Assembly (NCBI RefSeq): GCF_056712565.1
Contig: NZ_CM160072.1
DNA length: 64,000 bases
Strand: one strand, 5' to 3'
In this document: positions 7,417-61,921 of the stretch, one piece after another
Layout: the number at the start of each line of letters is the position of its first letter
How positions within the stretch are numbered: position 1 is the first letter of the stretch
Program-made: the position numbers and the translations under genes
The notes under the pieces: model-generated
What the model saw: the letters and a program-made list of their open reading frames with translations, nothing else
What the model was told of the DNA's origin: nothing
The model's database searches: none

Positions 7417-7434
7417 TTTTCCTCTCTTTGTAAA

Positions 7435-9044: not shown

Positions 9045-9073
9045 TAGACAGAGGGGTGGGAAGTCCGTATTAT
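9045..9073 (+). promoter_or_regulatory. candidate sigma70 promoter of the tRNA operon
   Basis: TAGACA, 17 bp spacer, TATTAT, then GC-rich discriminator about 20 bp upstream of mature tRNA-Arg. Confidence 0.45.
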
Positions 9074-9094
9074 CCACCCCCGCAACGGCGCTAA

Positions 9095-9171
<77 letters not shown>

Positions 9172-9228
9172 TTTAGTCCCGGCGCTTGAGCTGCGGTGGT
9201 AGTAATACCGCGTAACAAGATTTGTAGT

Positions 9229-9305
9229 GGTGGCTATAGCTCAGTTGGTAGAGCCCTGGATTGTGATTCCAGTTGTCGTGGGTTCGAATCCCATTAGCCA
9301 CCCCA
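9229..9305 (+). tRNA. hisR: tRNA-His (anticodon GUG)
   Basis: Extra 5' G characteristic of tRNA-His; anticodon loop TTGTGAT; ends CCA. Confidence 0.9.
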
Positions 9306-9325
9306 TTATTAGAAGTTGTGACAAT

Positions 9326-9412
9326 GCGAAGGTGGCGGAATTGGTAGACGCGCTAGCTTCAGGTGTTAGTGTCCTTACGGACGTGGGGGTTCAAGTCCCC
9401 CCCCTCGCACCA
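9326..9412 (+). tRNA. leuT: tRNA-Leu (anticodon CAG)
   Basis: 87 nt with long variable arm; anticodon CAG; ends CCA. Confidence 0.9.
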
Positions 9413-32581: not shown

Positions 32582-33079
32582 TTATTGCTGAAAATTGTCT
32601 TTTTCAAAGTCATGCGGGTTGAACACTCGCTCTATCTTATTTTCCTGGGTTAGTTGATACTCATTGTTATCAGCAATAAAAAAATGAGTATTACGGTAAG
32701 GATATTCATTAATAACCATTAAATAGTTTTTTACGATGCAATTATCATTGCTCTTAATCGTCGGGAAACAGTAGAGATCTTCATACGGCCCTTCGATATA
32801 TTTTTTATAGTCAGTGAAGCCATTACCGATATCAATAACATACCAGGTATGCCAACTATCTTCTGGTAGGGGATTTTGACTTTTAATTTCATCCTGATGC
32901 TTCAGATACCAATTTATTTTATCGCTATCAGTCCATGGCAGATGATCAACGACCAGAAAGACTGAATTGCCAGCATCAGAGTATGTATACAAAATCTGTA
33001 CAGGACGCAATATCCATAAATTATAGATGCAGCATAGAAGAAATAAATATAATATAATTTTCTGGAGTTTTCTTTTCAT
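32582..33079 (-). CDS. small membrane-anchored protein, candidate immunity/partner protein (possibly DUF943-like)
   Basis: 165 aa; N-terminal hydrophobic anchor; very AT-rich codon usage; 4-nt overlap with upstream gene. Confidence 0.5.
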   Translation of the reverse strand: MKRKLQKIILYLFLLCCIYNLWILRPVQILYTYSDAGNSVFLVVDHLPWTDSDKINWYLKHQDEIKSQNPLPEDSWHTWYVIDIGNGFTDYKKYIEGPYEDLYCFPTIKSNDNCIVKNYLMVINEYPYRNTHFFIADNNEYQLTQENKIERVFNPHDFEKDNFQQ

Positions 33080-33924
33080 AGATAATTTTCGATTCTTTCG
33101 ATAGTGTTAAAATTGGTGAAAAAAGGTTTGAAAGCAAAGTCTTTATGCCGTTGTAAAAAGAACCATATGCGAAAAAATCTATACTTGTTGTAAATCTTGT
33201 TTTTTATATCAGTCACATCCAAACCAAAGTGGTCTTGTGCTATGAAATGAATGGTAGCGCTCCAGCCCATAGGATATTTTTGAAAATTTAAAAGAGATAT
33301 TTTTTGAGCTGAGATATCATGAATGCTGATTCCCAGGCCATTAAAATTATCTTTAAAATCATTGAATTTATTTAGTCTTGATGAAAGTAATTCGGTCTTA
33401 ATCTTTTGTAGGAGAAGAGGCCGGTATCCTATCGTAGGTGTTGAAGAAATATCATTTTCGATACATTCTTTGATTACACGTATTGGGCTATTATAATCAT
33501 ATTTGTTTATTCGTTCATGAAAAGATAAGTTCAATTCCTGGCTATGGAAACTGTTGCCATTTTCATATCTAAAATGATCAATCAGATCCTGGATGAGTGT
33601 TTTGTATTGTCCAAAAAAGGAAAACATTTTTGCCAGATCTTTCATTTCTGCAAATAAAATATCAATACATTCACTTTGTGATATTTTTGTTCCAGAAGTT
33701 GGAACACTAAAAGCACCATAAGTAGAATTCGGCCCAGGAAAATGGTATTTAATGAGGCGGTAAGGATCAACTTTTGCAGAGATGTCGCTTAAGCCGAGAG
33801 AGAGAAAATCTTGTTCTTCCATATCCCCATACTGCATATCATCAGCAGAAAAATCATCGAATAAAGTAATAGTTTCGAAAAGTGTACAGGGCATATTAAT
33901 TGATGAGCCTAATATGTTGTTCAT
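33076..33924 (-). CDS. hypothetical protein, candidate toxin/effector-like (possibly DUF3289-like)
   Basis: 282 aa; no signal peptide; AT-rich; translationally coupled to the downstream 165 aa gene; occupies the slot held by yigF/yigG in K-12. Confidence 0.5.
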   Translation of the reverse strand: MNNILGSSINMPCTLFETITLFDDFSADDMQYGDMEEQDFLSLGLSDISAKVDPYRLIKYHFPGPNSTYGAFSVPTSGTKISQSECIDILFAEMKDLAKMFSFFGQYKTLIQDLIDHFRYENGNSFHSQELNLSFHERINKYDYNSPIRVIKECIENDISSTPTIGYRPLLLQKIKTELLSSRLNKFNDFKDNFNGLGISIHDISAQKISLLNFQKYPMGWSATIHFIAQDHFGLDVTDIKNKIYNKYRFFRIWFFLQRHKDFAFKPFFTNFNTIERIENYL

Positions 33925-46199: not shown

Positions 46200-46301
46200 A
46201 TGAGTGCCAGATTGAAGCAGATCTTCAGGAGTAGAAATAACCGAATCGTTTTTTTCGCAAAACACAGTTTTGAGTGATTCCGTTCAGTAATCAACGCTAC
46301 G

Positions 46302-46562
46302 TTATTTATTCTCACGTTGCACGAGATTGTATCCCTTTTCACTAACGTGGTAGTGAGGCATAGACTTATGCCCGCTATCCTCAATAATAACCAAACCTTC
46401 GTTAGCTAATTTGTTAACAATATTAACAACATTACCGAATCCTGGTATTTGCCTTATGGATAGTGTGCGATCGAGATTCATCCAGTTCCAGTTTATATCT
46501 TTCTCAGTCATAACGTTCAGCACGTTAAGTTCATTTTTAGTGATCACGATATTCTGTACCAA
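46302..46562 (-). CDS. small protein, candidate orphan immunity protein (paralog 2)
   Basis: 86 aa; high identity to the adjacent 85 aa protein by eye; AT-rich. Confidence 0.5.
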   Translation of the reverse strand: MVQNIVITKNELNVLNVMTEKDINWNWMNLDRTLSIRQIPGFGNVVNIVNKLANEGLVIIEDSGHKSMPHYHVSEKGYNLVQRENK

Positions 46563-46621
46563 AATTGATGAGTATCTTATTGAAAGATCACAATGTAAAT
46601 CATGCTCCTGTAATGGCTGGA

Positions 46622-46879
46622 TCAGAAGAGGTTGTCTTGTTGTTCTTTGATAAGATTCAATCCATATTGAGAAACTCTGTAGCGTGGTTTAGAGTTGCCC
46701 TCACCATTTACGATATCAACCAACCCATGATTAACCAGCTTTGTTACGATATTCGCTACGTTGCCAAATTCTGGAATATTTCGTATAGCTAAAGTACGAT
46801 CCAGCACCATCCAGCTCCAGTCAATATCTTTCTCAGCCATAACTTTCAGCACGTTAAATTCAACTATCGTAATCGTCAT
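46622..46879 (-). CDS. small protein, candidate cognate immunity protein (paralog 1)
   Basis: 85 aa; start overlaps the stop of the upstream toxin-domain ORF by 4 nt. Confidence 0.5.
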   Translation of the reverse strand: MTITIVEFNVLKVMAEKDIDWSWMVLDRTLAIRNIPEFGNVANIVTKLVNHGLVDIVNGEGNSKPRYRVSQYGLNLIKEQQDNLF

Positions 46880-48054
46880 TTTTTTGCATCCGGATGAAAT
46901 AAGTCAGTATCTTTAATTTTAAAGTCTTCTAGAGTTGCAGTATGTGCATTATTCCATAATTCATATCCATCTAAACCATTCGGTTCACCTGTTTCCCATC
47001 CTAAATTACAATAACGCTGATACTCGCGGCATTCATGAGTATAGTAGTTCAGATCGTATTTTTCAGGAAGCAATTCTTTATTTGCTATTTTTTTTAGCCT
47101 TGAAATCATTACATCATTAGCTGGATCATGATCAAATCTGGAGATATGCTTTTCAACAATAGCGATACCTTCCCTATTGATTGTTACGCCATCTATCGTC
47201 AGGTTTTCTATTGGACCACCGGCAAGGTCGGGATTAAATGGTCTTCCTGATACTGCTCCTCTGGCTCCGAAATGCTCAAATGATTCCAAATCAGGGAATC
47301 TCATTCTTCCCAGAACAACTCCAGCAACTATTGAAGCACCAGCGATGAGTAACCCTTTGTTATCCATAACTTGATCGTAACCAGCAGGTGCATCTCCTCC
47401 CAACTTGTTTGCTGTTTCCCTGAATCCTTCGATATTCCCATTGTATATGCCGCCAGCAGCAAGCAGTCTGCCAACCGCTTTACTATTGAGTGTTTTGAGG
47501 CCATTATTATCTTTAGTTTTTTGCCGTGGTATAAACAGACGGTTGTAGTTATCGGGAAATGCCAAATGACTAAATTCAGTATTAGCAATCAGATGCCTGG
47601 AGAGTATATATTCATAACTGACAGTGATGGTTTCTGTATCCAGATTGTTCTCAGTAAACAGGTGATTGATTGCTGATAAGAGCGCGCCGCGGAGTTGAAT
47701 GTTGTAATATTTCTCCTATCGACCAAATCTATTGATCCGATAGAAGTCAAACTCCATGAACAACTGCTCGTTATTGTTAATAGCGTTAATAAGTAACGGG
47801 GAGCTTTTGTCAATCAACTTACAGAAACTAAGGCCATGTAATTGTGACCCTTTGCCTGTATTCGTAATACTATTAGATAGCGAGAACGCGAAGATTTCAT
47901 CTTCATGGCCAATCTGCCAGCGATTACCTATTGATGCGCTCGTTCCGCAACGAGAGGAAATACATCCTTGTTGTTCTCCGGTTATGGTCAGGTAAATTTC
48001 ATCACTCATCTTTGATGAACTCTCTTTATTGCTTGATGTTTTAAAAATAAACAA
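46876..48054 (-). pseudogene. Hcp (T6SS tube protein) fused to a C-terminal extension domain, interrupted by in-frame TAG at 47716..47718
   Basis: N-terminal ORF matches Hcp (YLTITGEQQG..., LSFCKLIDKSSP); the frame continues past one TAG through the rest of the Hcp fold into the 229 aa domain; likely true start MSDEIYL at 48009. Confidence 0.6.
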
Positions 48055-48493
48055 TATTGCTATTTGTTTATAATTATTTACTCCTCAAGTTAATGGATTT
48101 AAATATGGGAAATAAAATGTTTCACTTTAGACCAGTTTTCATGAGGAAAATCTGTAATCATTAATAATAAACATGAATATTTTGCAGTGATTAATATTTG
48201 TTATGAATATAATCTATAACAATGAAGAGTTATCAGTTGTTCGGTGTATAGCCAGAGACGAGTTCAGTTTGTGATTTTTACAGGGCAGTTACAGCCGCAA
48301 AATTTTATGGCTGATTTCACCTTCCCCTCAAGCTTATCTTTCTTAAAAAGAGAAATAATTCTTAAATTCAAATAGTTATATACAATCTACTCTCTTTCTT
48401 GTGACTAGCTTCACATTTCATACTGATGCATTGGAATGAAATAAAATTTCATGAGATTTTGTGTTTGAGAAAAATTATTTCATTAGGTGTGAA

Positions 48494-49051
48494 ATGGACG
48501 CAAAGCTGTACATCACTGAGATCATCAATGAATTAACCTTCGTTAAGGACTCTATCCGTGAGGATGACTGCACCAAATTGATCGACGCTATTCAGCAAAG
48601 CCAGCGCGTTTTCTGCTATGGCCTGGGGCGTGCCGGCTTTTCCATGAAAGCCTTCACCATGCGCCTGATGCATATGGGCAAAGAGGTTTACTTCCTGACG
48701 GAAACCATTACGCCGAACTTTGGGCCTGGCGATCTGTTTATCGTTTCTTCCGCTTCCGGTGAGACAGCACAACTGGTGGCACTGGCGAAAAAAGCACGTC
48801 AGTTTGGCGGCGCTGTGGCGGTGTTAACCACGAATCGACACGCCACTATCACCGAGTTTGTCGACGTCATCGTGCAAATCAATGCCCCTTCCAAAAATCA
48901 AAAAGATTCTGTTTTCCGCTCGGCACAGCCGATGGCGTCGTTGTATGAGCAAGCTTTGCTGGTGATTGCCGATGCATTAGTGATGAAGATGGCTGCTGAA
49001 AGCGGTGCGCCGGAAAGTGAACTGTTTAAGCGCCACGCCAATCTGGAATAG
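48494..49051 (+). CDS. SIS-domain protein (6-phospho-3-hexuloisomerase-like sugar-phosphate isomerase)
   Basis: About 185 aa from ATG at 48494 preceded by AGGTG; SIS phosphosugar-binding pattern. Confidence 0.55.
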   Translation: MDAKLYITEIINELTFVKDSIREDDCTKLIDAIQQSQRVFCYGLGRAGFSMKAFTMRLMHMGKEVYFLTETITPNFGPGDLFIVSSASGETAQLVALAKKARQFGGAVAVLTTNRHATITEFVDVIVQINAPSKNQKDSVFRSAQPMASLYEQALLVIADALVMKMAAESGAPESELFKRHANLE

Positions 49052-49092
49052 TCGTCGCCGTTATTTGCTCGATACCCTACAGGAGAATAAAA

Positions 49093-50601
49093 ATGAGCAA
49101 AAAAATAACATCCTTGTTTAACTTCAAGAAGTTGCAGAAATTTTCTTCTGCTCTGATGTTACCAATCGCCATTCTTCCGGCGGCGGGTTTGATTTTAGCC
49201 ATCGGGATTTCATTTAACATTGAGCTGCTGGCGAATTGCGGCGGCCTGATTTTCGCCAACCTTCCTTTGCTGTTTTGTGTCGGTATTGTGATTGGCCTGA
49301 CAGGTGATGGTTCTTCATCACTTTCAGCGATTATCAGCTACATGATCATGAATGCCACGATGGGAACGCAACTTGGCATTACCGCGGAGTCCGTTGCAGC
49401 CAGTAACGGTGACTATGCGATGATCCTCGGGGTACCGACGTTACAAACGGGAGTGTTTGGCGGTTTGATTGTCGCCATCTTTGTTTATCTGCTCTATACC
49501 CGCTTCCACAATATTGAATTGCCTCAGTTTCTTGGTTTCTTCGGTGGAAAACGCTTTGTACCGATTATTACGGCGGTGGCGGCAATTATTGTCGGCTATT
49601 TATTGCCGTGGCTGTGGATACCGGTACAAAAAGGTCTGGCGTCGCTTTCAACGCTGGTGACCAGTGGGCATAACGCGAACTTCGCGGCCTTTATTTACGC
49701 CGTTGGCGAACGTTCGCTGATTCCTTTTGGCCTGCATCATATCTGGAACGTGCCGTTTTATTACAACTTTGGCGACTACATGACCAAATCCGGGCAACTG
49801 GTGACGGGCGATATTCCGGTGTTCTTTGCCCAATTGCGCGACGGTGTTCCGTTGACGGCGGGGTTGTTTATGACAGGTCGTTTCCCAATCATGATGTTTG
49901 CGTTACCTGCCGCCGCGTTGGCGATGTATCAGGAAGCAAAACCGGAACGTAAGGCGCTGATTAAAGGCCTTTTACTCTCCGGTGCGCTGACCACATTTGT
50001 TACCGGGATTACGGAGCCGCTGGAATATGCATTTTTGTTTGCAGCTCCGGTTCTCTACATCATTCACATCTTCTTATATGCCACTTCATTTGTGCTGATG
50101 AACATCCTGAATGTGCACATTGGTCATCCTTTTGCTGGCGGTCTTATTGATTTCGTACTGAATGGCGTTATGCCAAACCGCACGCCGTGGTATCTGGTGT
50201 TCCTGGCAGGCGCGGGCTATGCAGCGATTTACTACACCGTATTTCGGGTACTGATCCGCAAGTTGAATCTGAAAACACCGGGACGTGAGGATGAAGAGAT
50301 TGCCGTTGCAACCACATTAACGCGCGAAGAACGTCCATACCAAATCATCGAGGCAGTAGGTGGTTTCGACAATATCGAAGATGTGGATGCCTGCGCAACA
50401 CGCCTGAGGCTGGCGCTGGTAGACGATAAGAAAGTGAATGAAAAACGGCTGAAGGAGTTGGGGGCTGCGGGTTTAGTGAAACTGGGTGATGGCGGTGTAC
50501 AGGTGATATTTGGCGGCAAATCGCAAATCCTGCGCGACGAAATCAAAACCGTAATGAGCAGACCGCGCCCGACAGAAATGACAGTGGCCTGTGCTAACTA
50601 A
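49093..50601 (+). CDS. PTS glucose-family EIICB component
   Basis: 502 aa; polytopic EIIC followed by C-terminal EIIB with CATRLR phosphorylation motif; AGGAG 7 nt upstream. Confidence 0.75.
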   Translation: MSKKITSLFNFKKLQKFSSALMLPIAILPAAGLILAIGISFNIELLANCGGLIFANLPLLFCVGIVIGLTGDGSSSLSAIISYMIMNATMGTQLGITAESVAASNGDYAMILGVPTLQTGVFGGLIVAIFVYLLYTRFHNIELPQFLGFFGGKRFVPIITAVAAIIVGYLLPWLWIPVQKGLASLSTLVTSGHNANFAAFIYAVGERSLIPFGLHHIWNVPFYYNFGDYMTKSGQLVTGDIPVFFAQLRDGVPLTAGLFMTGRFPIMMFALPAAALAMYQEAKPERKALIKGLLLSGALTTFVTGITEPLEYAFLFAAPVLYIIHIFLYATSFVLMNILNVHIGHPFAGGLIDFVLNGVMPNRTPWYLVFLAGAGYAAIYYTVFRVLIRKLNLKTPGREDEEIAVATTLTREERPYQIIEAVGGFDNIEDVDACATRLRLALVDDKKVNEKRLKELGAAGLVKLGDGGVQVIFGGKSQILRDEIKTVMSRPRPTEMTVACAN

Positions 50602-50651
50602 TTCGAGATTAGCGGGCTGGTTTCAGCCCGCCAGACAGAGAGAGCTGAAGT

Positions 50652-52649
50652 ATGAATTCACAATTACTGGCTAACGCCATCCGAATGTTAAGTGTTGATG
50701 CGATCCAGAAAGCGAACTCCGGTCATCCGGGCGCGCCGATGGGGATGGCGGATATTGCCGAAGTGGTCTGGCGTCGTCACCTGCGTCATAACCCAAAAAA
50801 TCCGCAGTGGTTTAACCGCGACCGCTATATTCAGTCGAACGGGCACGGTTCCATGTTGATTTACGCTTTGCTGCATCTTACAGGCTACGACCTGTCGATG
50901 GATGATATTCGCGACTTTCGTCAGCTCCACTCCCGCACGCCAGGTCATCCAGAATATGGTTATACGCCGGGTGTTGAAACCACCACCGGCCCGTTGGGGC
51001 AGGGCGTAGCTAATGCGGTGGGGATGGCGATTGCGGAGAAGGCGCTGGCGGCAGAATTTAACAAACCGGGCTTTAATATTGTTGATCATCACACATGGCT
51101 ATTTTTGGGTGATGGCTGCCTGATGGAAGGGATCTCCCACGAGGCCTGTGGTCTTGCAGGAACGCTGAAGCTCGGCAATCTGATTGCTATCTGGGACGAT
51201 AACGGTATTTCGATCGATGGTCACGTAGAAGGCTGGTTTGCTGAAGATACGGCTGCCCGTTTTCGTGCCTACGGCTGGCATGTCATTGAAGGCGTTGATG
51301 GTCACGATCCAGAAGAGGTAGATGCTGCGGTGCGTGAAGCGAAAAGCGTCACGGATAAGCCCAGTCTGCTGTGCTGCAAAACGATTATCGGTTTTGGTTC
51401 GCCAAATAAAGCCAACAGCCACGATTGCCACGGCTCGGCGCTGGGTGCAGATGAAGTGGCGCTGGTGCGTGAACGTCTGCAATGGCCGTATGCCCCTTTC
51501 GAAATTCCTGGTGAAATTTATGCCGCATGGGATGCGACCGAGAAAGGCGCGCAGGTTCAACAGGAATGGGATGCACTGTTTGCTGACTACGCGAAGCAGT
51601 GGCCGGAACTGGCGGCGGAGTTTACTCGTCGCATGAAGGGTGATTTGCCTGCTGGCTGGGCCGAGAATATGCAGAAATATGTGCACGATCTGCAATCCCA
51701 TCCGGCGGCGCTGGCAACCCGTCAGGTCAGCCAGAAATGCCTCAATCACTTCGCGGATATGCTGCCGGAACTGATGGGCGGCTCGGCGGACTTGTCGCCC
51801 TCTAACCTGACTCGCCATCAGAAATCGGTTGATTTCACCGGGGAAAATCCGGCGGGGAATTACATCTCCTATGGCGTGCGTGAATTTGGTATGTCGGCCA
51901 TCATGAACGGTCTTGCGCTGCATGGTGGGTTTATCCCTTACGGCGGTACTTTCCTGATGTTTATGGAATATGCGCGTAATGCACTGCGCATGGCGGCGCT
52001 GATGAAGATCCGCTCGGTGTTTGTTTATACCCACGATACCATCGGCCTGGGCGAAGACGGCCCGACACATCAGCCCGTTGAGCAACTGGCGTCGCTGCGT
52101 CTGACGCCGAATATGGAAACCTGGCGCGGTTGCGATCAGGTGGAAGTGGCGGTAGCCTGGCAACAGGCGATTGAGCGCAAAGATGGCCCAACGTCGTTGG
52201 TATTAACGCGCCAACCTCTGGCGCAACAGCCGCGCACCGCTGCACAGTTGGCAGAGATTGCGCGTGGTGGTTATGTACTGAGTGATTGTGACGGTCAGCC
52301 TGAGATGATCCTCATTTCTGCGGGTTCAGAGATTGAGTTAGTGGTCAGCGCCGCAAAAGCGTTAACGGAAGAAGGGCGTAAAGTTCGCGTGGTTTCCATG
52401 CCGTGTACCGAGCGTTTCGATAATCAGGATGCGGCGTACAAAGAGTCGGTATTGCCAAAAGCTGTACGCAAACGTCTGGCGGTAGAAGCCAGCATCGCCG
52501 GATTCTGGGAACGCTACGTCGGCCTGGACGGTAAAGTGATCGGCATGACGAGCTTTGGTGAGTCTGCTCCGGCGAATGTGTTGTTCAAACACTTTGGTTT
52601 TACGCCGGAAAATGTCCTGGCGCAGGCGCGTGAGCTACTGAACAGCTAA
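50652..52649 (+). CDS. transketolase paralog
   Basis: 665 aa; collinear with TktA by eye ([29 protein letters not shown], ThDP-binding regions). Confidence 0.85.
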
Positions 52650-52678
52650 ACCTGCACAAGGGGTGAAAGGATGACCTT

Positions 52679-53524
52679 TTACCCCTTGAAACGGGAGCCA
52701 AGAAACTCTTCACGGGTGCGGTATTTCTCGTAATGCGCCTTGTTTTTATACATAAACAACAGCACCAGCATATCAATAACGCCCATTGCCGGAACGCGAG
52801 TGGAGTCGAAGGCTTCAAAGAAGATTTTATCGCTGACCGCGGTATTGAGTTGATGGGTGGAGAGTTTTGATAACGGAGATTTAATATAGTTAGTGATACA
52901 AACGGATTTGGCACCGCGCTCTTTCACCACTTTAAAGATATCGACCATTAAGTTGGTGCTGCCAGAGTTAGAAATACCAATCGCCAGGTCACGTTTCCCC
53001 ATAGAATATGCCGCATTAATTTGCATTTCCGGGCTGACGTGAACAACGGTTTTTAATCCGAGTTGGCTGAATTTATAAGCACCATAAACGGCCAGAGGGT
53101 TTGAATTTCCGGCAGCAAAAAAGAAAATAGTGTCGCAATTAGCAAGTAGTTTGAGAATGGACTCAAGCACTTCGGCATTAAAAAATTGCGTTGATTGTAT
53201 TAAATCTTCGGCCTGTTTTTTTAATAAAAATGTGGCCAGCGACGTTATATCGGTAAAATCGGTATTATCAGGATAGCTATTGTCAGGATTAATGACTTCT
53301 TTTGCTAATGCAATTTTTAAATGGTAATAACCCTGATAACCTAATTTCTTACAGGTGCGTACGATAGTCGCTTCACTGGCATGGCTTTTTTCTGATAGTT
53401 CAGTGACACTATAGTTCACGACTTCATGTGCGTGGCTAAGAATATAGTCAGCGACCTTTTTTTCCGCCTGATGCAGTGTAGGGTAATTGCTTTGAATCAG
53501 ACTTTTTACGGTTATGTTATTCAT
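52679..53524 (-). CDS. RpiR/MurR-family transcriptional regulator (HTH plus SIS domain)
   Basis: 281 aa; N-terminal HTH, C-terminal SIS; convergent with the PTS-SIS-transketolase genes. Confidence 0.7.
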   Translation of the reverse strand: MNNITVKSLIQSNYPTLHQAEKKVADYILSHAHEVVNYSVTELSEKSHASEATIVRTCKKLGYQGYYHLKIALAKEVINPDNSYPDNTDFTDITSLATFLLKKQAEDLIQSTQFFNAEVLESILKLLANCDTIFFFAAGNSNPLAVYGAYKFSQLGLKTVVHVSPEMQINAAYSMGKRDLAIGISNSGSTNLMVDIFKVVKERGAKSVCITNYIKSPLSKLSTHQLNTAVSDKIFFEAFDSTRVPAMGVIDMLVLLFMYKNKAHYEKYRTREEFLGSRFKG

Positions 53525-53724
53525 AATTAGTAAATTTCATTCTGACAGAAAGTGCTGATTATAACATAGTTTTCAGGCGTGGATAGGTGTGAAAAAAATG
53601 AAGGTGTGCAGTGAACGTAATGATTAACAGACCGGTTAATTTTCATGAATTACGTCAACTGCACAAAAATAATTTAAACGGGTGCTCTAATTAAAGCAAA
53701 ACTTATATTTTTATCATTGTATTG

Positions 53725-54630
53725 TCAATTAAATACAAATTGTGTCATTAATTGTGGGTTTCTTAAATATTCTATGCACCACTGACAGGCTTTGCCCATA
53801 CCATCGGAACGAGCGGCAAGAAATAACTTGGTGGCGTGTTTATGTTCGCGCATTGGCTTTTTAAGCAATTTACCGCTGTTCAATAACGGCAATGCCAGAT
53901 GATGTGGAATATAACCAATACCGACGTTTTGTTCTATTAAGGCGATTGCCGTAGCGAAGTCAGGAACAAAAATGGGTTTTTGTCCTTCCAACAACCAGGC
54001 TTGCATCGGGGGGAAGTTAACGGAGGTATCGCGGATACAAATCGCTGGATAGTGACGCAATTCACTGTTTTCTAATGGATGCCGCTTCGCTGCCAGTGGG
54101 TGGAGTGGGCTGACGACAAAATCCCATTCCATTTGTCCGACCGGTTCGCTAATGATGCCTTCACTGCTTGGTACTGCATGAGGAGCACCGTAGACCAGAT
54201 CAGCACGCTTACTGTACAGCGCATCCCAGCAGCCGTTGTATACCTCAAGATCTACCGTCAGTGTTGTTGATGTGAATTGCCGTTCAAAATCTCGAATAAA
54301 TGCCACCAGCAAATCACCAGGAATAATATTGTTCACCGCAATTGTCAGTTCACGCTCAATACCATCGTGAATCAGCACTGTGTTGCGCTTTAATGCTTCC
54401 AGGTCGCCAAGAATAGTTTTGCTATGTTCGATGAAGTAACTTCCCGCTGGCGATAATTCAATATAGCGTCCCTTACGAATGAACAGTTCAACGCCCAGGC
54501 TCTCTTCCGCTTTCTTGATGGTGTAACTGATGGCGGAAGGGACTTTATTTAACTGCTCGGCTGCGGTGGTAATGCTCTGGTGTCTGGCGACCAGATGAAT
54601 AACACGAAGCGTTTCGTCTGAGATGAACAT
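53725..54630 (-). CDS. LysR-family transcriptional regulator
   Basis: 301 aa; N-terminal LysR-type HTH. Confidence 0.75.
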   Translation of the reverse strand: MFISDETLRVIHLVARHQSITTAAEQLNKVPSAISYTIKKAEESLGVELFIRKGRYIELSPAGSYFIEHSKTILGDLEALKRNTVLIHDGIERELTIAVNNIIPGDLLVAFIRDFERQFTSTTLTVDLEVYNGCWDALYSKRADLVYGAPHAVPSSEGIISEPVGQMEWDFVVSPLHPLAAKRHPLENSELRHYPAICIRDTSVNFPPMQAWLLEGQKPIFVPDFATAIALIEQNVGIGYIPHHLALPLLNSGKLLKKPMREHKHATKLFLAARSDGMGKACQWCIEYLRNPQLMTQFVFN

Positions 54631-54707
54631 AAGGCTCCCTGGTCAGTGGTAAAGTGGCTGAATCTCTCCAGATTCAGCCGTAATCATTGCCTGAGTATAC
54701 CCAGGAA

Positions 54708-55931
54708 TTAGCGGTGTTGACTTGCCCGACTGAGAATCGCATACGCGATACATGCCACCAGAATCGAGTCTACCGAAGGGATCGTCGTCAGGGTGAATAA
54801 GCCTTTTACGGTCATAAAGCCAACCGCTGCGCCTATGATCCATGCTGCGAATGTCAGCACTTTAATCTGTGACTCCTGGGCTAACACTGACTCTTGATAG
54901 CCATTACGGCGATAAAGGAAAAAGTCAGCGATATAAATTCCGGCAACGGGTGGCGTGGCGATACCCAGGAACAGCAGAAACGGAATAAACCACGCCATAA
55001 TATCCATACTGCCTACGATGGCGGAAAGGATACCCAGCGCCACGGTAATCTGCCATTTGGGAAAGCGGGTAAGCAGTGTGGAAACCACCAGCGTGCCCTG
55101 GAACATATTGCCCGCGTTACCGGTGACGCAGGCGAAAATCAACAACAGCGCCGCAGGCAGAACCGCACCGAATACCGCCATCGCACCCAGTAAAGATCCC
55201 TGACCACTAATGGCGCTCGGCGTTGCACCCGCCCAGTAGAGCAGAGGGTAGGCAACCAGAAACGTCACGCCTGCGGCAATCAGCGCATGTTTGCGGTTAT
55301 GCACAAAACTACCGAAATCAGGCAGTGTGGCAACCAGCACAATAATGGTGCCAACAACGGTGGAAACGGCGACACCTGTATTCATCTCCACAATCGCCGC
55401 TGGTACTGCCACTTCGGTATGGGTTGCCACATAGAGGATGTAACACAGCACCAGCGCGATAACCGGCACGGCAACCTGGGCAATTTTTCCCAGAACGGCA
55501 AAGCCAAATGCCGTAGAGGCGACAAAAATGACACAGCCAGCCGCCACTAACAGTGCCAGTGGAACTTCCAGTCCATGTTGAGCCAGTAAGTCATGTACCG
55601 AATGACCAAACATATTGGCGGTAACGGCAATCCAGCCGAACAGACTTATCGCCATCAAAATGTTAATGGCGATGGCCCCTTTTTCGCCAAACGAATATTT
55701 CACAATGCCATACGTTGGCAGGCGGGCTTTTTCTCCCACGCTAATGGTGATGGCTGAAAGTAAGGTCAGAATGACGCCGCCTAACAATACGACGCTAATT
55801 AAACTGCCGCTGGAAAGTTGATTGCCGAGGCTTGAGGATGACAACAGCACAGGTGTGACGGCAATACCCAGCAAAATCATGGCAATACGCAATCCTGATG
55901 CCGTATTCAGATTCTCTTCTTTTTTACGCAT
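54708..55931 (-). CDS. NCS1-family nucleobase permease (CodB-like)
   Basis: 407 aa, about 12 TM; resembles cytosine permease CodB around GIYIADFFLYRRNG. Confidence 0.65.
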   Translation of the reverse strand: MRKKEENLNTASGLRIAMILLGIAVTPVLLSSSSLGNQLSSGSLISVVLLGGVILTLLSAITISVGEKARLPTYGIVKYSFGEKGAIAINILMAISLFGWIAVTANMFGHSVHDLLAQHGLEVPLALLVAAGCVIFVASTAFGFAVLGKIAQVAVPVIALVLCYILYVATHTEVAVPAAIVEMNTGVAVSTVVGTIIVLVATLPDFGSFVHNRKHALIAAGVTFLVAYPLLYWAGATPSAISGQGSLLGAMAVFGAVLPAALLLIFACVTGNAGNMFQGTLVVSTLLTRFPKWQITVALGILSAIVGSMDIMAWFIPFLLFLGIATPPVAGIYIADFFLYRRNGYQESVLAQESQIKVLTFAAWIIGAAVGFMTVKGLFTLTTIPSVDSILVACIAYAILSRASQHR

Positions 55932-55956
55932 AGTATGTTCCCTTTATAAATGCGCG

Positions 55957-56346
55957 TTACACAGTATGAAAATGCCCGGTGTATTTGCGCCAGCTACCCA
56001 GTTCTGTAATTTCCCGTTGGCCTTCGGTCAGCCAGTTTTCTGCCAGTACGCCCAGCACTTCGCTACCATCGGCAAGTTTGATTTTGCCAATTGCCAGCCC
56101 AGCGGGTTCGCTCATTAACAGAGCGGCAAAACTGGCCAGCGGTAATTGCCAAATTTCTACGTCGACGTGTGTTCCTCCTTCATTCACGCGAATCATTCCC
56201 GGATGGCGATCATTAATACTCCACAACCGGTAATGGGCGTCAGTTCGGTCTTCACGGACAAAAATACCGCCCGCTTTTTGCATATTTGGGTTGAGTTCCA
56301 GGCCGCGCATCAGCGTTCCGTTAACGGCTAAAAGCGTTGTAGTCAT
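55957..56346 (-). CDS. gamma-glutamylcyclotransferase-like (AIG2 / allophanate hydrolase C-terminal domain-like) protein
   Basis: 129 aa; LAVNGTLMRG N-terminal motif typical of GGCT-fold proteins. Confidence 0.5.
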   Translation of the reverse strand: MTTTLLAVNGTLMRGLELNPNMQKAGGIFVREDRTDAHYRLWSINDRHPGMIRVNEGGTHVDVEIWQLPLASFAALLMSEPAGLAIGKIKLADGSEVLGVLAENWLTEGQREITELGSWRKYTGHFHTV

Positions 56347-56362
56347 TGTGTTCTCCAGAGAA

Positions 56363-57319
56363 TTAAAGGGTTATCCATGTACCGCTCTGATGCGCCAGGG
56401 CTGCTTTTATGGTTTGCGGTGAAGTAATCAGGCCGCTGGCCTGTTTGCCTTGTTGCTGGCTGGCATTGATGAAATCAACAATGGCTTCCACTTTGGGTTG
56501 CATACTGCCGACACCAAACTGACCTTCCCGCAACAGCGTTTGCGCTTCGGCAACGCTGATAGCGTCGAGCCACTGTTGTTGTGGTGTACCAAAGTTAATC
56601 GCTACTTTTTCTACACCGGTGGGGATCACCAGCAGATCTGCGCCTAACTGACTGGCGAGCAGCGCGGAGGCCAGATCTTTATCGATCACGGCTTCTACAC
56701 CTTTCAGTTGTTGCCCGTCTCGCACCACCGGAATACCGCCGCCGCCGCAGGCAATAACCAGATATCCCTGGCGCACCAGGTGAGCGATGGTGTCGTGCTC
56801 AATAATTTCCAGTGGTGCAGGAGAGGGAACTGTACGCCGCCAACCACGCCCGGCGTCCTCCATCAGCGTCCAGCCGAGTTGTTGTTGGCGTTGTTGGGCC
56901 GTTGCTTCATCGAGAAACGCGCCAATTGGTTTACTGGGGCTGGCGAAAGCATCGTCATGTGGGCTGACTCGCGTTTGTGTCACCAGGGCAATTACCGGTT
57001 TGTTTATGCCACGGCGAGCCAATTCGTTATGCAGCGCTTTCTGGAACATGTAGCCAATTGCACCTTGTGTATCACCCACGGCGTAATCAAGTGGAACCGG
57101 AGAAACTTCGTTACTGGCGAGTTCAGAGCGGCGCAGAATAAAGCCCACCTGCGGGCCATTACCGTGGGTTAGTACCAGGTCCCATCCGGCTTCAACCATA
57201 TCAACGATATGTTGCACGCTTTCCATCACTGCAACATATTGATCGGGAATACTATTGCGTTGCTCGTCCTGAATGAGCGCATTGCCGCCAACCGCGACGA
57301 CAGCCAGTGGCTTAACCAT
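56363..57319 (-). CDS. carbamate kinase
   Basis: Start at MVKPLAVVAVGGNAL (318 aa), overlapping the upstream stop; carbamate kinase family pattern. Confidence 0.75.
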   Translation of the reverse strand: MVKPLAVVAVGGNALIQDEQRNSIPDQYVAVMESVQHIVDMVEAGWDLVLTHGNGPQVGFILRRSELASNEVSPVPLDYAVGDTQGAIGYMFQKALHNELARRGINKPVIALVTQTRVSPHDDAFASPSKPIGAFLDEATAQQRQQQLGWTLMEDAGRGWRRTVPSPAPLEIIEHDTIAHLVRQGYLVIACGGGGIPVVRDGQQLKGVEAVIDKDLASALLASQLGADLLVIPTGVEKVAINFGTPQQQWLDAISVAEAQTLLREGQFGVGSMQPKVEAIVDFINASQQQGKQASGLITSPQTIKAALAHQSGTWITL

Positions 57320-58736
57320 GATGGTTCTCCTTTGCGACGATCTCCGCCAGTGCACGTACAGCGGCGACAAAACAGGCCATCGGCGCAGTGGTGATCCCGG
57401 CACCAATTTGCCCGACCCCCGCTTGTTTGTGGGCGATACCCGTATTGATGACCGGTAAAATGCCGCGATCGGTCACTTTACGCGCATCAATTCCTGCTGC
57501 GGTGGGGGCAAAATTGAGGGCTGGAAGTGTAAATGCGGGGTTACCGCCGAGGGTGATGGCTTGCATCCGACGGCTGTTATTGGTGGCATCGGCAGGGGTG
57601 CCTCCCACAAATTTGACGATCGCCGGAGACGACGCCATCGCGAAGCCACCCATACCTGCGGTTTCAGTAATTGCGCTATCACCCAGGTCAGCAGCAGCGT
57701 CGTCAACGCCAAATCCGGGGAAGAACAGACCTTCAACGGCATTGGCAGGAGCCTGGAACCAGCGATCGCTAGTACCGGAAAGCCGAATACCAAAACTCAC
57801 CCCGTTACGCGCCATCACCGTAACCATTGAACTGAACGGTACATTGGCGGCGGCATCCATCATTGCTTTACAGGCGGCCATCGACAGATTGAGGAAGAAG
57901 TGATCGTTACCGGTGATAAATGCCACGACGCGCTGGATATGTTCCTGTGGAAGAGAGCAGGCCAGCAATGCCGGGAGCAGGCGCTTAATCAGCAAACCGG
58001 TAGCGGCAGCATTGCGGTTATGAACTTCATCCCCCATATGCAGCGCCTGCGCCATTAATGGCTTGAGTTCCAGCTCGCCGTGTTGTGCGATTGCTGCTTT
58101 CATTGCCGGCGCCAGTTCATCGCGCATCCAGGCCAGACGATTGAGAACTTCATCGTTATTGGCGCCAAAACGGAGAACCTTACCCAGACCTTCATTGAAA
58201 TTGCTAAAAGTACGATGGCCGTTGGTTTTGTTTTCTACCACCCATAACGGCATCGACGGGCTGATGATGCCTGCCATTGGGCCAACCGCGTGATAATGAT
58301 GACAAGGGGCAAGGTCGATTTCGCCTGCGTTTATTTGGTTTTCAGCGTCTTGCTGGCTGGTGGCCCAACCTTCGTACAGCATGGCACCAATAATCGCCCC
58401 TTTTACCGGACCACACATCTCTTCCCAGGCAATCGGCGGGCCAGAGTGCAAAATACGTTTTTGTTCAGCCATTGCTGGAATGGCCTCTTTAGCGAGCATG
58501 ACATCCACCAGCATGGGCTGTGCTTCGAGATAACGTGTCATGGCGATTTGGTTGGCATTTTCTACCAGGGGATGACGTAGCAACGATGCCAGATCCAATC
58601 CAGCGTCAATATCGCCTTGTGCTGGTGGCTGCCAGTTGAGTGCAATTGCGCTTCCCCCGGCATGTTGAATATTGTCAGCAAAACTGTGTAGTCCCGCGTT
58701 CACAACCTTCAAAGGCTGATTAAATAAGGTATTCAT
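57312..58736 (-). CDS. DUF1116-family protein (YlbE-like)
   Basis: 474 aa; start immediately follows the FdrA-like stop; assignment mainly from size and operon context. Confidence 0.5.
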   Translation of the reverse strand: MNTLFNQPLKVVNAGLHSFADNIQHAGGSAIALNWQPPAQGDIDAGLDLASLLRHPLVENANQIAMTRYLEAQPMLVDVMLAKEAIPAMAEQKRILHSGPPIAWEEMCGPVKGAIIGAMLYEGWATSQQDAENQINAGEIDLAPCHHYHAVGPMAGIISPSMPLWVVENKTNGHRTFSNFNEGLGKVLRFGANNDEVLNRLAWMRDELAPAMKAAIAQHGELELKPLMAQALHMGDEVHNRNAAATGLLIKRLLPALLACSLPQEHIQRVVAFITGNDHFFLNLSMAACKAMMDAAANVPFSSMVTVMARNGVSFGIRLSGTSDRWFQAPANAVEGLFFPGFGVDDAAADLGDSAITETAGMGGFAMASSPAIVKFVGGTPADATNNSRRMQAITLGGNPAFTLPALNFAPTAAGIDARKVTDRGILPVINTGIAHKQAGVGQIGAGITTAPMACFVAAVRALAEIVAKENHHG

Positions 58737-60292
58737 GCGTTTAGCCCCTTTTTCTGCAACTGAGTCTGTGCAACGGTGCTGGCCCATAGCGCCGCCTGTG
58801 CATTGCTGCTGGCGATGATGACCCCTGCATTTTGTAGTGCTCTTATCTGCTGACTGCGTATTTGCGGATCAGCTTCCGTTCCGCAAACGTGCGCAATCAG
58901 CAACGGTGCGTTATTCATGTCGATGTGTGAAAGTTGGTCCAGTAATTCGCTGGCAGGCGCCGTGGAAGCGCCATAACCAAGTACCAGGTCGAATAACACG
59001 ACGGCAGTGTGTGAGTCGTTGAGTTCGTTGAGCAGACGTTGATTGCGCAGAGTCGGGTCGATCATTGGATGCGGTTTGCCACGGGTGAAATCATCGTCGC
59101 CCATATCGATCAACGTGTGATCTTCGCTTTGCCAGATATTTGCCAGAGCACGATTACCCGCAACTGGCGTATTGGAAGCTGCGCTGAATCCCTTTTGTTG
59201 GCAGATAAGTTGCGCTTCGTAGCAGAAGGTTCCTCCGGCGAAAACACCGCGTATCGCCTGGCGATGGGCTGGCAGGCGCTGACAGGCGTTTTGTAACATT
59301 GTGAGATCGGCGCAGGAAATCTCGGTCTCGACAGCCGGAAGTGGCTGAGCATTCAGTAACGCTACGGCGATATTTGCGGCGCTGGCAAGTGTGGTGGCCG
59401 CGGTGATATTGGGACGTGCCAGATCATGCGGATTCGCACCGAGGAAATTCACCACCACGGGTTTTCCACAAGCCTCGGCGCGCTCCAGAATAGTCTGGGC
59501 AACGATCGGTGAAGGCGGTTTTGAAATCAGCACAATCACGCGAGTTTCATCGTCTTGCGCCAGCGCATCTAAAGCGAAGAGCATCGATATTCCACCAATC
59601 TCTTCACTGAGATCATGCCCACCGGTTCCCAACGCCTGAGAAATACCCGCTCCGAGCTGGTCGATTCGGCAAGTCACTTCCTGTAGCCCGGTGCCTGACG
59701 CGCCAATAACACCAATTGCTCCGCGTTTCACCACATTAGCGAAGCCTAACGGAATGCCGTTAACAATGGCGGTTCCACAGTCAGGTCCCATTACGATGCG
59801 CTGACGTTCTCGGGCAAGCGTTTTGATAGATTTTTCCTGCCCGATACTGACGTTATCGCTGAACATCATCACGTTCATTCCGAGGTTTAACGCTTTAATT
59901 GCTTCGGCGGCGGCGTAGTCTCCCGGTACAGAAATGAGTGCCAGGTTGGCTTCGGGTTCGGCTTCCAGTGCCATTTCCAGGCTGACCTTTTCCGGTGTTT
60001 TAATGCCACTATCCGTTTCATCATCGGGTTTGCTGGTCAGACGTTGCTGGGCCAGTACCAGTGCTTCATTGCAAATATCTTCTTCACCCATGACTGCAAT
60101 CACTAAATCATTGGGACTGGCGTTGATTTCGTTACCCAGACCCGCATCGCGCAATTGTTCGAGATTATTGGGCGTTCCCATGACGACCGAGGCCTGTTGA
60201 ATACCGGGCAACTTGCTGATTTGCGCGGAAATCTGCATCAGAGAAACTGAGTCCTGATAAAGATTACTGAAAACTTTATATTTAACTTTCAT
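58733..60292 (-). CDS. FdrA-family protein (succinyl-CoA synthetase alpha-like fold)
   Basis: 519 aa; blocks YQDSVSLM, MMFSDNV, MGPDCGT, GVIGASGTG, PHPMIDPTLRNQ match E. coli FdrA. Confidence 0.75.
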   Translation of the reverse strand: MKVKYKVFSNLYQDSVSLMQISAQISKLPGIQQASVVMGTPNNLEQLRDAGLGNEINASPNDLVIAVMGEEDICNEALVLAQQRLTSKPDDETDSGIKTPEKVSLEMALEAEPEANLALISVPGDYAAAEAIKALNLGMNVMMFSDNVSIGQEKSIKTLARERQRIVMGPDCGTAIVNGIPLGFANVVKRGAIGVIGASGTGLQEVTCRIDQLGAGISQALGTGGHDLSEEIGGISMLFALDALAQDDETRVIVLISKPPSPIVAQTILERAEACGKPVVVNFLGANPHDLARPNITAATTLASAANIAVALLNAQPLPAVETEISCADLTMLQNACQRLPAHRQAIRGVFAGGTFCYEAQLICQQKGFSAASNTPVAGNRALANIWQSEDHTLIDMGDDDFTRGKPHPMIDPTLRNQRLLNELNDSHTAVVLFDLVLGYGASTAPASELLDQLSHIDMNNAPLLIAHVCGTEADPQIRSQQIRALQNAGVIIASSNAQAALWASTVAQTQLQKKGLNA

Positions 60293-60386
60293 GCTGTTAC
60301 GCCTGTTTCATTCCGCCCGATAGCAAAATTCGGGCAAAGCATCCCCGTGTAGCCCCATAAACGGGCTACGGGAGAAAAGGTTGAAA

Positions 60387-61247
60387 TCAATTCATGGTGT
60401 TCAGGGTTCGAAAGCCATGCAGCATTCCTGCAAGGCAATCTACTCCTGACGTTGCGCCAAATTGCATGACCTGTTCTGCACAGGATGCGATTGTCATTGC
60501 CGATGCGCTCCCAACCAGTTGTGCGAGTAACTGGCAAATCGGTTCTGAAAAATGTCCCTGAAGCGCACGCTCCAGATAATGACGACTGATATCCGTGGTG
60601 TTGTGCGCATGTTGATCAATTGCCTGCTGCAACCGGTATTGATGATCGGCAAGTGGTGCAGGGAGTTGCCATAACCAGAGCGCTGCCAGATAGCCCAACA
60701 AATAGTCATCTCCATCGGGCGTTAAGCCTTTACCAAAGCCGATCAGTTGTGGCACCTGGCGTTCCAGCGCATCTGGATGCTCCATAATTGCTAATCCCTG
60801 GTGCGTGAGACTATCCGGCAGGTGCAATGTGCTTTGAACGTTATGTTCCAGACAAAATAAAAGCCGTTGCGATGCCATCGTTGGGTAGTGCTGGAAAACC
60901 AAAGGGAATGCCTCAAGTGTCAGCATTCTCCCCACAAATGGCGACTGCCAGAGCGTTGCGTTTTCGAGCGCCACACAAAATCGAGGTGTCCGCAGTAAGC
61001 CTTGGGTTAACTGAATGGGATCTGAATGGGCAATCTCTCTTCGCCAGTCCCAACATTCAGGTAGCCAGACTCTGGCAGCATCAGGGAGATTCAGATACGT
61101 TTGCGCACACAACAGAGTGATGAATGTTCCCGCGTCTGAATACAGATTTACCGCATGTTTAAAAGCGCTATGTAGACGTAAATCTTGCGTTTCATTCTGC
61201 GGGAAAAGATATCCCAACGACGATGCGCAAAGCGTAACCTGTACCAT
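60387..61247 (-). CDS. hypothetical protein, possibly DUF2877 (YlbF-like)
   Basis: 286 aa; assignment inferred from position beside FdrA-like and DUF1116-like genes, not from a recognised motif. Confidence 0.4.
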   Translation of the reverse strand: MVQVTLCASSLGYLFPQNETQDLRLHSAFKHAVNLYSDAGTFITLLCAQTYLNLPDAARVWLPECWDWRREIAHSDPIQLTQGLLRTPRFCVALENATLWQSPFVGRMLTLEAFPLVFQHYPTMASQRLLFCLEHNVQSTLHLPDSLTHQGLAIMEHPDALERQVPQLIGFGKGLTPDGDDYLLGYLAALWLWQLPAPLADHQYRLQQAIDQHAHNTTDISRHYLERALQGHFSEPICQLLAQLVGSASAMTIASCAEQVMQFGATSGVDCLAGMLHGFRTLNTMN

Positions 61248-61252
61248 CGGCG

Positions 61253-61921
61253 TTAGCCTTCCAGACCTGCAATAATGGCTTTGGAATCAGTAACCCAACC
61301 GAAAATGGCACCTTGTGCTTTGATCATCTCGAGGGCGTATTTCTGGAATTCCGGGAAATAGGAGCCGACACAATCTTCCGGGATAATGCATTCATAGCCA
61401 CGATCATTTGCTTCGCGCACGGTGGTGGTTACGCAAACTTCGGTTGTTACACCACAAACTATCAGCGTCTTGATACCGTGGTTTTGCAAAATCAGATGTA
61501 AGTCGGTTTGATAAAACGCGCCTTTGCCAGGCTTATCAATCACCGGTTCGCCTGCCACCGGGTACAGTTCAGGAATGATGTCATGACCTGCTTCACCTCT
61601 GACCAGAATGCGTCCCATCGGTCCTGGTTCACCAATAAAGGTTTTTCCGCCGCGCGTCAGTTTGGCTGGCGGGCAGTCGCTTAAGTCTGCACGATGGCCT
61701 TCACGAGTATGAATAACCATAATTCCTTTTTGACGTGCGGCTGCCAGCACCTCTGTACATGGTGCGATAGCCGTGCGTACCAGTGAAACATCATTGCCCA
61801 GAGCCTCACCGAAGCCCCCTGCTTCGACAAAGTCACGCTGCATGTCGATCATGACCAGTGCAGTTGTGCGCGGATCAAAAGGTAATTCAAAGGGTTGAGC
61901 CTGAAAAATGGATTGCGTCAT
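61253..61921 (-). CDS. isochorismatase-family cysteine hydrolase (RutB/biuret hydrolase-like amidohydrolase)
   Basis: 222 aa; VMIDMQRDF start and VCGVTTEVCV catalytic-Cys region typical of the family; first gene of the operon. Confidence 0.7.
   Translation of the reverse strand: MTQSIFQAQPFELPFDPRTTALVMIDMQRDFVEAGGFGEALGNDVSLVRTAIAPCTEVLAAARQKGIMVIHTREGHRADLSDCPPAKLTRGGKTFIGEPGPMGRILVRGEAGHDIIPELYPVAGEPVIDKPGKGAFYQTDLHLILQNHGIKTLIVCGVTTEVCVTTTVREANDRGYECIIPEDCVGSYFPEFQKYALEMIKAQGAIFGWVTDSKAIIAGLEG

Follow-up and report, generated by a model that had tools for sequence, protein, structure and literature searches.

The closest described relatives of the gene considered here are the Hcp proteins with C-terminal extension toxins (Hcp-ETs) of type VI secretion systems (T6SS). 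In these proteins, an N-terminal Hcp domain is fused to a C-terminal toxin, one or more immunity genes lie downstream, and the locus is often situated away from the T6SS cluster (PMC6730261, PMC6099711). Five Hcp-ET clans have been published, namely HNH-DNase, DUF2235/Tle1, Pyocin S3, Colicin-DNase, along with a papain-like clan (PMC6730261, PMC6099711). A further orphan Hcp effector, T6EC4 of Citrobacter koseri FDAARGOS_164, has a 227-amino-acid (aa) unannotated extension and an adjacent immunity gene, T6IC4; T6EC4 is toxic in the E. coli cytoplasm, is rescued by T6IC4, with which a complex is predicted (interface predicted template modelling score, ipTM, 0.93), and has Tox-REase-5-like structure matches (PMC11148199). 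Here, we describe a module on the minus strand of a 64,000-nucleotide (nt) stretch of contig NZ_CM160072.1 (hereafter the window, whose positions serve as coordinates throughout). The module consists of an Hcp(TssD)-toxin gene with an in-frame TAG, followed by two small genes (Table 1).

Our reading, to which we give a probability of roughly 80%, is that this is a decayed specialised-Hcp T6SS effector module, whose toxin was lost through a nonsense codon and whose immunity genes were kept. The Hcp domain of the intact 377-aa protein would have been built into the T6SS tube, and the tube, launched by a T6SS whose genes lie elsewhere on the chromosome, would have carried the covalently attached extension into a neighbouring bacterium. 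There, a Gly/Ala-rich pre-toxin segment may help the toxin to cross or engage the target inner membrane, and the toxin core would act in the target cytoplasm as a metal-dependent enzyme on nucleic acid or on the translation apparatus. The 85-aa protein, translationally coupled to the toxin, would neutralise it as its cognate immunity protein, and the 81-aa protein would be an orphan immunity protein against an alternative allele of the toxin that circulates in E. coli. In the lineage of the window, a G-to-A change turned Trp98 into TAG, so that no secretable Hcp-toxin would be made, and both immunity genes are intact. Such a strain probably no longer uses this toxin to attack, yet it probably stays protected from relatives that fire either allele.

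The module shares with the Hcp-ET effectors the Hcp-toxin fusion, the immunity gene directly downstream and the orphan locus, and the initial annotation of the window as an Hcp-ET-like orphan fusion with immunity-like genes agrees with the Hcp profile matches, the extension of about 230 aa and the overlapping 85-aa gene. The toxin fits none of the five published clans, as no Pfam family matches it, and the window copy is a pseudogene, unlike the published effectors. Two individual candidates were rejected: strain 55989 has Hcp-ET1, yet its metE site, which is where the module lies in the window, is empty, and Hcp-ET3-4 (UTI89_C0121) is found at a different site. Concerning T6EC4, C. koseri carries the toxin family of the window with an 86-aa downstream gene. 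Unlike T6EC4, the all-alpha model of the window toxin gave no Tox-REase-5-like match among the 50 matches listed, and the common C. koseri copy is 5′-truncated and has no Pfam Hcp match, unlike T6EC4 as described. Compared by its published description only, T6EC4 may be the same protein as the window toxin.

Table 1. Features of the Hcp-toxin module, in window positions
Feature	Position	Strand	Basis
Hcp(TssD)-toxin fusion, 377 codons plus stop, pseudogene	46876..48009	-	Continuous frame; RefSeq 'internal stop'; intact allele in AR_0067
Hcp/TssD tube-protein domain, aa 1-147	47569..48009	-	Pfam and NCBIfam matches
In-frame TAG, codon 98; ancestral TGG (Trp)	47716..47718	-	Alignment and 61-mer counts
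Pre-toxin segment, aa 172-246; contains the hydrophobic, Gly/Ala-rich stretches AVGRLLAAGGIY and GLLIAGASIVAGVVLG	47272..47496	-	Hydrophobicity and homologue searches
Toxin core, aa 247-377, putative all-alpha polymorphic-toxin C-terminal domain	46879..47271	-	Invariant-residue set
Cognate immunity candidate, 85 aa, winged-helix-like	46622..46879	-	ATG overlaps toxin stop (ATGA)
Putative orphan immunity gene, 81 aa from GTG 46547	46302..46547	-	Matches the immunity gene of the type-2 allele
Low-GC accessory island with the whole module, beside metE	46200..48450		GC content and empty site in 55989

The Hcp-toxin gene and its nonsense codon

The large gene occupies a minus-strand frame of 378 codons that runs from the ATG at 48009 to the TGA at 46876..46878 and contains a single in-frame TAG, as determined from the open reading frame (ORF) listing and the translation. 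The same frame continues beyond this TAG, as had been described from the sequence, and the largest ORF that follows it is indeed 229 aa long (TTG 47565 to 46876). The N-terminal part, which the initial annotation assigned to Hcp, matches NCBIfam TIGR03344 over residues 1-147 (124.9 bits, cut-off 58.9; E=2.8e-36) and Pfam T6SS_HCP PF05638 over residues 6-135 (E=4.8e-14), which bears out the assignment. These scans were run on the intact 377-aa allele of AR_0067, from which the window differs by point changes only. In the window copy, the TAG at codon 98 interrupts the Hcp frame, and a complete Hcp fold is not encoded. Behind Hcp, the frame continues as an extension of about 230 aa, within the length expected of an Hcp-ET (>60-120 aa). 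RefSeq annotates the gene as 'tssD, type VI secretion system tube protein, internal stop', a pseudogene.

An alignment of the alleles showed that codon 98 is TGG (Trp) in the intact alleles versus TAG in the window, a single-base difference (G to A). Based on exact 61-mer counts in the complete-genome collection, the TAG haplotype is present in 256 genomes, including ATCC 11775, S88 and Nissle 1917, while two TGG haplotypes are present in 235 and 299 genomes, i.e., in at least 534. The TAG share is therefore close to 30% of the carriers (256 of about 846). Other isolates thus have a sense codon at this position, as the initial annotation had anticipated, although the codon is TGG (Trp) and not the CAG or AAG that it had proposed. 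Since the TAG 61-mer recurs in 256 genomes against the 235 and 299 genomes with TGG, the TAG is a real inherited nonsense mutation, neither a sequencing error nor a recoding signal, and the gene is a pseudogene in the lineage of the window. The frame is undamaged after the TAG and every family-invariant residue of the toxin is kept, which indicates that the inactivation was recent. A separate nonsense allele, E133* (GAA to TAA at codon 133), was found in 3 genomes of another allele group.

The module is carried by 848 of the 5426 complete E. coli genomes in the collection, or about one in six, and it is chromosomal every time. In about one carrier in three, the weapon would have been lost and both shields kept; Nissle 1917, the type strain and S88, a meningitis strain, belong to this group. 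Such carriers would represent a natural case in which an effector is lost and its immunity is retained, from which it could be predicted who kills whom among gut E. coli.

The toxin core, its family and the pre-toxin segment

The toxin core comprises about 130 aa and is all-alpha in its AlphaFold2 (AF2) model. The residues invariant in the family are H288, D319, Y323, H325, E326, E329, W352 and H356, to which several conserved Arg residues are added. Based on the invariant His/Asp/Glu set (H288, D319, H325-E326, E329 and H356) and the Arg residues, we infer that the core would be a metal-dependent cytoplasmic enzyme whose target is nucleic acid or the translation apparatus, as for the related bacteriocins pyocin SX2, pyocin G and carocin D. 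A more specific version is rather doubtful in our estimation and is offered tentatively. According to this version, the core would be a structurally new four-helix metal enzyme, with the ligand-like pattern H288 ... H325-E326-x-x-E329 ... H356-x4-E361, that hits a component of the translation machinery and not bulk DNA; the winged-helix proteins would be an immunity family not recognised before, and the pre-toxin segment would be the contact-dependent counterpart of the IMT domain of bacteriocins and would take different toxins through the inner membrane.

The extension has no Pfam match at E<=10, including the Tox-REase-5 (TseT-like) profile PF15648, and no fold match in the PDB; searches of Pfam, NCBIfam, PADLOC and PDB sequences with the C-terminal domain returned nothing useful. 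To this extent, the extension belongs to no recognised family, as the initial annotation stated; nevertheless, a widespread C-terminal family was found. A HMMER search against 1.84 billion representatives retrieved the toxin core in 549 clusters at 50% identity, and in nearly all of them it forms the last ~130 residues of proteins whose lengths range from 130 to 5200 aa. These proteins include Rhs, TcdB/SpvB-like, LysM, PAAR, Hcp, DUF8093 and Pyocin_S proteins; that is, the same C-terminal domain follows unrelated N-terminal delivery regions, as is characteristic of polymorphic toxins. Among the GTDB species representatives (one genome per species), 212 relatives were found, with a range that covers Enterobacterales, Pseudomonas, Serratia, Burkholderiales, many cyanobacteria, Planctomycetes, Bacteroidota and Acidimicrobiia. 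The earlier suggestion of a novel toxin type must consequently be abandoned, as the extension is a member of a large polymorphic-toxin family that includes pyocins and colicin-like bacteriocins. The family is shared by T6SS, Rhs, PAAR and Tc-like toxins and by diffusible bacteriocins; nevertheless, it lacks a Pfam entry and a solved structure, and its reported biochemistry is contradictory.

Two groups of relatives show other arrangements of the core. In cyanobacteria, it is found in short frames of 131-165 aa, with a gene of the winged-helix immunity type usually 74-137 nt downstream and few overlaps; these frames may be stand-alone or orphan cassettes. In Atlantibacter hermannii, two tandem DUF8093-toxin and immunity pairs lie between glpD and glgP (locus positions 6301-9393), with no T6SS genes nearby.

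One cytotoxic domain has been reported to be common to the pyocins SX2 and G and the carocins D and S3, and the predicted SX2 cytotoxic domain shows no structural likeness to known bacteriocin domains (PMC10422930). The immunity protein ImSX2 has 87 aa, and its cloning primers specify an N-terminal MLDLEG... and a C-terminal ...EKKYGIV (PMC10422930). In our searches, Pyocin_S-containing bacteriocins end in the toxin core at 44-50% identity, and the bacteriocin-type loci of the family that were retrieved then carry an immunity family of ~85-90 aa (A4), with the consensus 'M(M)LDLEGIYKNESVEDVL...KGPNWKxPxFVTEKKYGI(E/K)'. Family A4 starts with M(M)LDLEG and ends with FVTEKKYGI(E/K), so the core-bearing bacteriocins are followed by immunity proteins of the ImSX2 type. 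Given that both termini of ImSX2 match and that the architecture is common, the core of the window is very likely the same cytotoxic domain as in pyocin SX2, pyocin G and carocin D. The two sides are alike in the size of the domain (~130-150 aa), the size of the immunity protein (~85-90 aa), the ATGA overlap and the lack of a structural relative (PMC10422930, PMC7322526, PMC7461348). They differ in that the bacteriocins rely on TonB-dependent import, as opposed to the T6SS Hcp fusion proposed for the window protein. The latter has no Pyocin_S (IMT) domain of the SX2-type bacteriocins and shows a hydrophobic pre-toxin segment in its place, and the immunity proteins of the window are winged-helix-like, unlike the ImSX2-like proteins found behind the bacteriocins.

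Several points weigh against this connection and against the activity deduced from it. The link to SX2 (EHF11209.1), pyocin G (ETV05907.1) and carocin D (ADH95192.1) draws on the immunity termini and the architecture, and not on an alignment with the named proteins. An hhalign comparison of the immunity family of the window with the ImSX2-type family gave E=0.021 and a probability of 2%. In addition, carocin D and carocin S3 have been reported as DNases (PMC7461348), whereas DNase activity was absent from pyocin SX2 in tests with Mg, Zn or Ni, and SX2 cut in vitro transcription-translation by only 50% (PMC10422930). Carocin S2 was considered as a relative and set aside, since it is a colicin-D-like RNase and irrelevant here.

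Within E. coli, a colicin-like bacteriocin encoded on ColE1-type plasmids (e.g., pS19_141-d, NZ_CP075644.1) has the same core with 48% identity over query residues 79-207, so that a genuine ColE1-type colicin operon in E. coli, with activity, immunity and lysis genes, uses this toxin core. As in the window, its immunity gene, of 90 aa, overlaps the toxin end by ATGA. Unlike the window module, the 747-aa bacteriocin is plasmid-borne and of the secreted type, with a lysis gene and an immunity protein of the ImSX2 type. The locus spans positions 2637-5385 of the plasmid, and 5.8-kb Klebsiella plasmids have a similar gene; as far as could be told, this colicin type apparently has no published name.

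Based on homologue searches, the conserved unit of the extension starts at 'KTLNSKAVGRLLAAGG' (aa 172), which places the pre-toxin segment before the core. One of its two Gly/Ala-rich stretches is the hydrophobicity maximum of the whole protein, and the AF2 confidence is low over the segment. The segment is found behind Hcp in E. coli, Salmonella and Citrobacter, behind DUF8093 in Atlantibacter, Cronobacter and others, and behind a third N-terminal domain in Pantoea, Lonsdalea and Klebsiella. In Ralstonia, the alignment of a PAAR protein extends across 200 columns. The segment also matches the PHROG families phrog_31266 and phrog_14497, both of unknown function (E~3e-15), and the sole match of a tblastn search in the phage collection was a misfiled Salmonella contig. 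Judging from its distribution among homologues, the pre-toxin segment appears to be a mobile module that is placed before different toxins, and it may serve as a carrier or translocation module that helps the toxin to cross or engage the target inner membrane. Its presence before unrelated toxins makes it a candidate membrane-translocation module of wider interest.

The segment has a close counterpart on conjugative plasmids. The IncHI2 'HNH endonuclease' WP_000902297.1 has a pre-toxin segment 64% identical to that of the window (the IncHI2 type was read from one plasmid record, Salmonella p628-mcr), and at the N-terminus it has a domain like the one found in Pantoea and Lonsdalea versions of the toxin of the window. 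It differs in that the segment precedes a true HNH toxin domain followed by a gene annotated as a YrhA family protein, and in that its gene belongs to the transfer region of a plasmid that is conjugative, unlike the chromosomal module of the window. About 450 large conjugative plasmids have the same order of pre-toxin segment, genuine HNH toxin and YrhA family gene. In p628-mcr (locus positions 2578-4155), the 353-aa pre-toxin/HNH protein adjoins traG and a lytic transglycosylase gene; from its Pantoea/Lonsdalea-like N-terminal domain, this protein may use a conjugation-linked delivery route.

Immunity candidates, toxin alleles and rival explanations

The start of the 85-aa gene overlaps the toxin stop, as initially noted, and the second small gene lies 74 nt beyond the first; RefSeq annotates both as hypothetical proteins. 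The length of 86 aa first given for the second product corresponds to its longest ORF (from TTG 46562), while the start in RefSeq and in the homologues is the GTG that gives 81 aa. The two proteins are 58-61% identical. Neither has a Pfam or NCBIfam match, and the PADLOC and PDB-sequence searches gave nothing useful. The 85-aa protein has 163 homologues, many of which are named 'MarR family transcriptional regulator' by NCBI. The AF2 model of the 85-aa protein has an H-b-H-H-b-b-H winged-helix topology (predicted local distance difference test score, pLDDT, 87), and weak PDB-profile matches covered the recognition helix and the wing of HxlR, MarR, PadR and AspA (E 0.0015-0.2). No MarR profile matched, and the proteins have 81-85 aa versus ~140 aa for MarR with its dimerisation helices. 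Despite the MarR names, we therefore do not place them in an unrelated characterised family, an outcome that would have spoken against the initial annotation.

In 45 of 79 loci from several phyla, a hidden Markov model of the family detected a homologous small ORF immediately downstream of the toxin, and this ORF often overlaps the toxin stop. The pairing is observed in Lonsdalea, Atlantibacter, Rhs and TcdB-like contexts, independently of the N-terminal delivery domain, and the immunity type tracks the C-terminal allele of the toxin across species and N-terminal domains. The overlapping 85-aa gene and this synteny suggest a downstream cognate immunity gene of the kind that accompanies Hcp-ETs, and the case for the 85-aa protein as a cognate immunity candidate is contextual but strong.

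Two toxin alleles occur in E. coli. Types 1 and 2 are near-identical up to approximately residue 290 and share 67% identity over the last ~85-90 aa. The type-2 allele (e.g., in MFDS1019527) has a single immunity gene downstream, which is 90% identical to the second small gene of the window and ~62% identical to the first. Moreover, the DNA homology between the window and the MFDS1019527 locus begins at the start codon of the second small gene. The type-2 match and this homology boundary point to the second small gene as an orphan immunity gene, and the two small genes are not the simple tandem paralogs that they had been taken for. The window would accordingly combine a type-1 toxin tip and the immunity gene cognate to it with a type-2 immunity gene that was retained behind them. 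An exchange in which the tip of the toxin is swapped along with its immunity gene, and an orphan immunity gene is left behind, is known from polymorphic toxins, and the arrangement observed here looks like this usual footprint of cassette replacement. With two natural toxin/immunity specificities, E. coli would offer a convenient system to study the mechanism of the family.

A different decay is seen in Citrobacter koseri (locus positions 2752-4147), in which a 5′-deleted Hcp-toxin copy of 298 aa contains the last ~66 aa of Hcp and is accompanied by an intact 86-aa immunity gene at another chromosomal site. This copy represents another route to a lost delivery domain with a kept toxin and immunity gene.

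The interrupted gene could still be functional if the TAG were read through or recoded, or if translation restarted behind it (e.g., at TTG 47565) to give a 229-aa intracellular toxin in a toxin-antitoxin-like arrangement. The frame that remains open past the TAG, the retention of all the invariant toxin residues and the UniProt listing of the 229-aa ORF of UTI89 as a protein would all suit this possibility. Nevertheless, intactness after the stop is equally expected of a recent mutation, no fewer than 534 genomes have a normal TGG for Trp at the homologous position, and we know of no TAG recoding in E. coli. Inspection of the sequence before the 229-aa ORF revealed no ATG, GTG or Shine-Dalgarno-like sequence, 97 aa of Hcp cannot adopt the tube fold, and RefSeq calls the gene a pseudogene; thus, we consider a functional gene very unlikely. 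The opposite suspicion, that the TAG arose through an error in sequencing or assembly and that the gene is intact in the organism, could be raised by the single-base difference from the intact alleles. It is refuted by the identical TAG 61-mer in 256 independent complete genomes, among them ATCC 11775, S88 and Nissle 1917, and we give it practically no weight.

The two other alternatives concern the products. The small proteins could be winged-helix transcription regulators of the operon and not immunity proteins, in keeping with the classical winged-helix topology of the AF2 model, the weak HxlR, MarR, PadR and AspA profile matches over the recognition helix and wing, and the NCBI names of their relatives. 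That this fold is typical of DNA-binding regulators, that NCBI uses 'MarR family' names, and that a promoter and terminator scan around the module remained at background level also count against the decayed-module reading. However, proteins of ~85 aa with no Pfam or NCBIfam match and no MarR dimerisation helices lie directly downstream of the toxin, often with a stop/start overlap, whatever the delivery domain or phylum. Their sequence type tracks the C-terminal allele of the toxin and an orphan copy is kept, which is the signature of polymorphic-toxin immunity. We therefore regard a purely regulatory role as unlikely, and the regulator and immunity roles can coexist. As for the C-terminal domain, database names such as 'HNH endonuclease' and 'colicin' for fragments of the protein, the published Hcp-ET1 class, and the reports of carocin D and carocin S3 as DNases (PMC7461348) would point to an HNH or colicin-type DNase. 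Against this, no Pfam HNH or Colicin-DNase match was obtained even at E<=10, and the all-alpha AF2 model has no beta-beta-alpha-metal finger and no structural match to any nuclease. The NCBI 'HNH endonuclease' label is explained by the pre-toxin segment held in common with the real HNH toxins of the IncHI2-type plasmids, and the Hcp-ET1 carrier 55989 has no gene at the metE site, so a DNase of this type is highly improbable. The decayed effector module with retained immunity genes remains the reading that we prefer.

Genomic setting of the module

The 2.1-kb locus is 100% identical to that of E. coli ATCC 11775, S88 and other strains, and the window resembles E. coli phylogroup B2. The GC content is 28-44% in the block at ~46200-48450 and 36-40% in the module itself, versus 53-56% in the flanking metE and sugar-metabolism genes. 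In E. coli 55989, metE abuts ysgA directly and the site is empty, which identifies the module as an accessory insertion. Based on the RefSeq annotation of the identical ATCC 11775 sequence, no T6SS structural genes occur across the 64-kb window, in agreement with the initial annotation of an orphan module. The T6SS cluster that it suggested looking for elsewhere in the genome is present in S88, the strain with the identical locus, where a complete cluster (tssA-M, Hcp and VgrG) is located at the aspV tRNA locus.

In the lineage of the window, ysgA is separated from the Hcp module by a 13.4-kb accessory island (~48494-61921) with genes for a cysteine hydrolase, DUF2877, fdrA, DUF1116, carbamate kinase, a permease, LysR, RpiR, transketolase, PTS IIBC and hxlB; in AR_0067 and MFDS1019527, ysgA adjoins the Hcp gene. 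Other accessory genes were observed in the window. Between lptM and cyaY, on the minus strand, a gene annotated by RefSeq as 'DKNYY family protein' with an internal stop (~22151-23620) is followed by a gene for a 438-aa hypothetical protein (~20838-22154); the DKNYY family gene is a second accessory gene of the window inactivated by a nonsense mutation. Between rarD and corA, a YPO3983-family and DUF943 gene pair is located at ~32582-33924, also on the minus strand. In 55989, this pair adjoins a partial corA duplicate that looks like an insertion scar.

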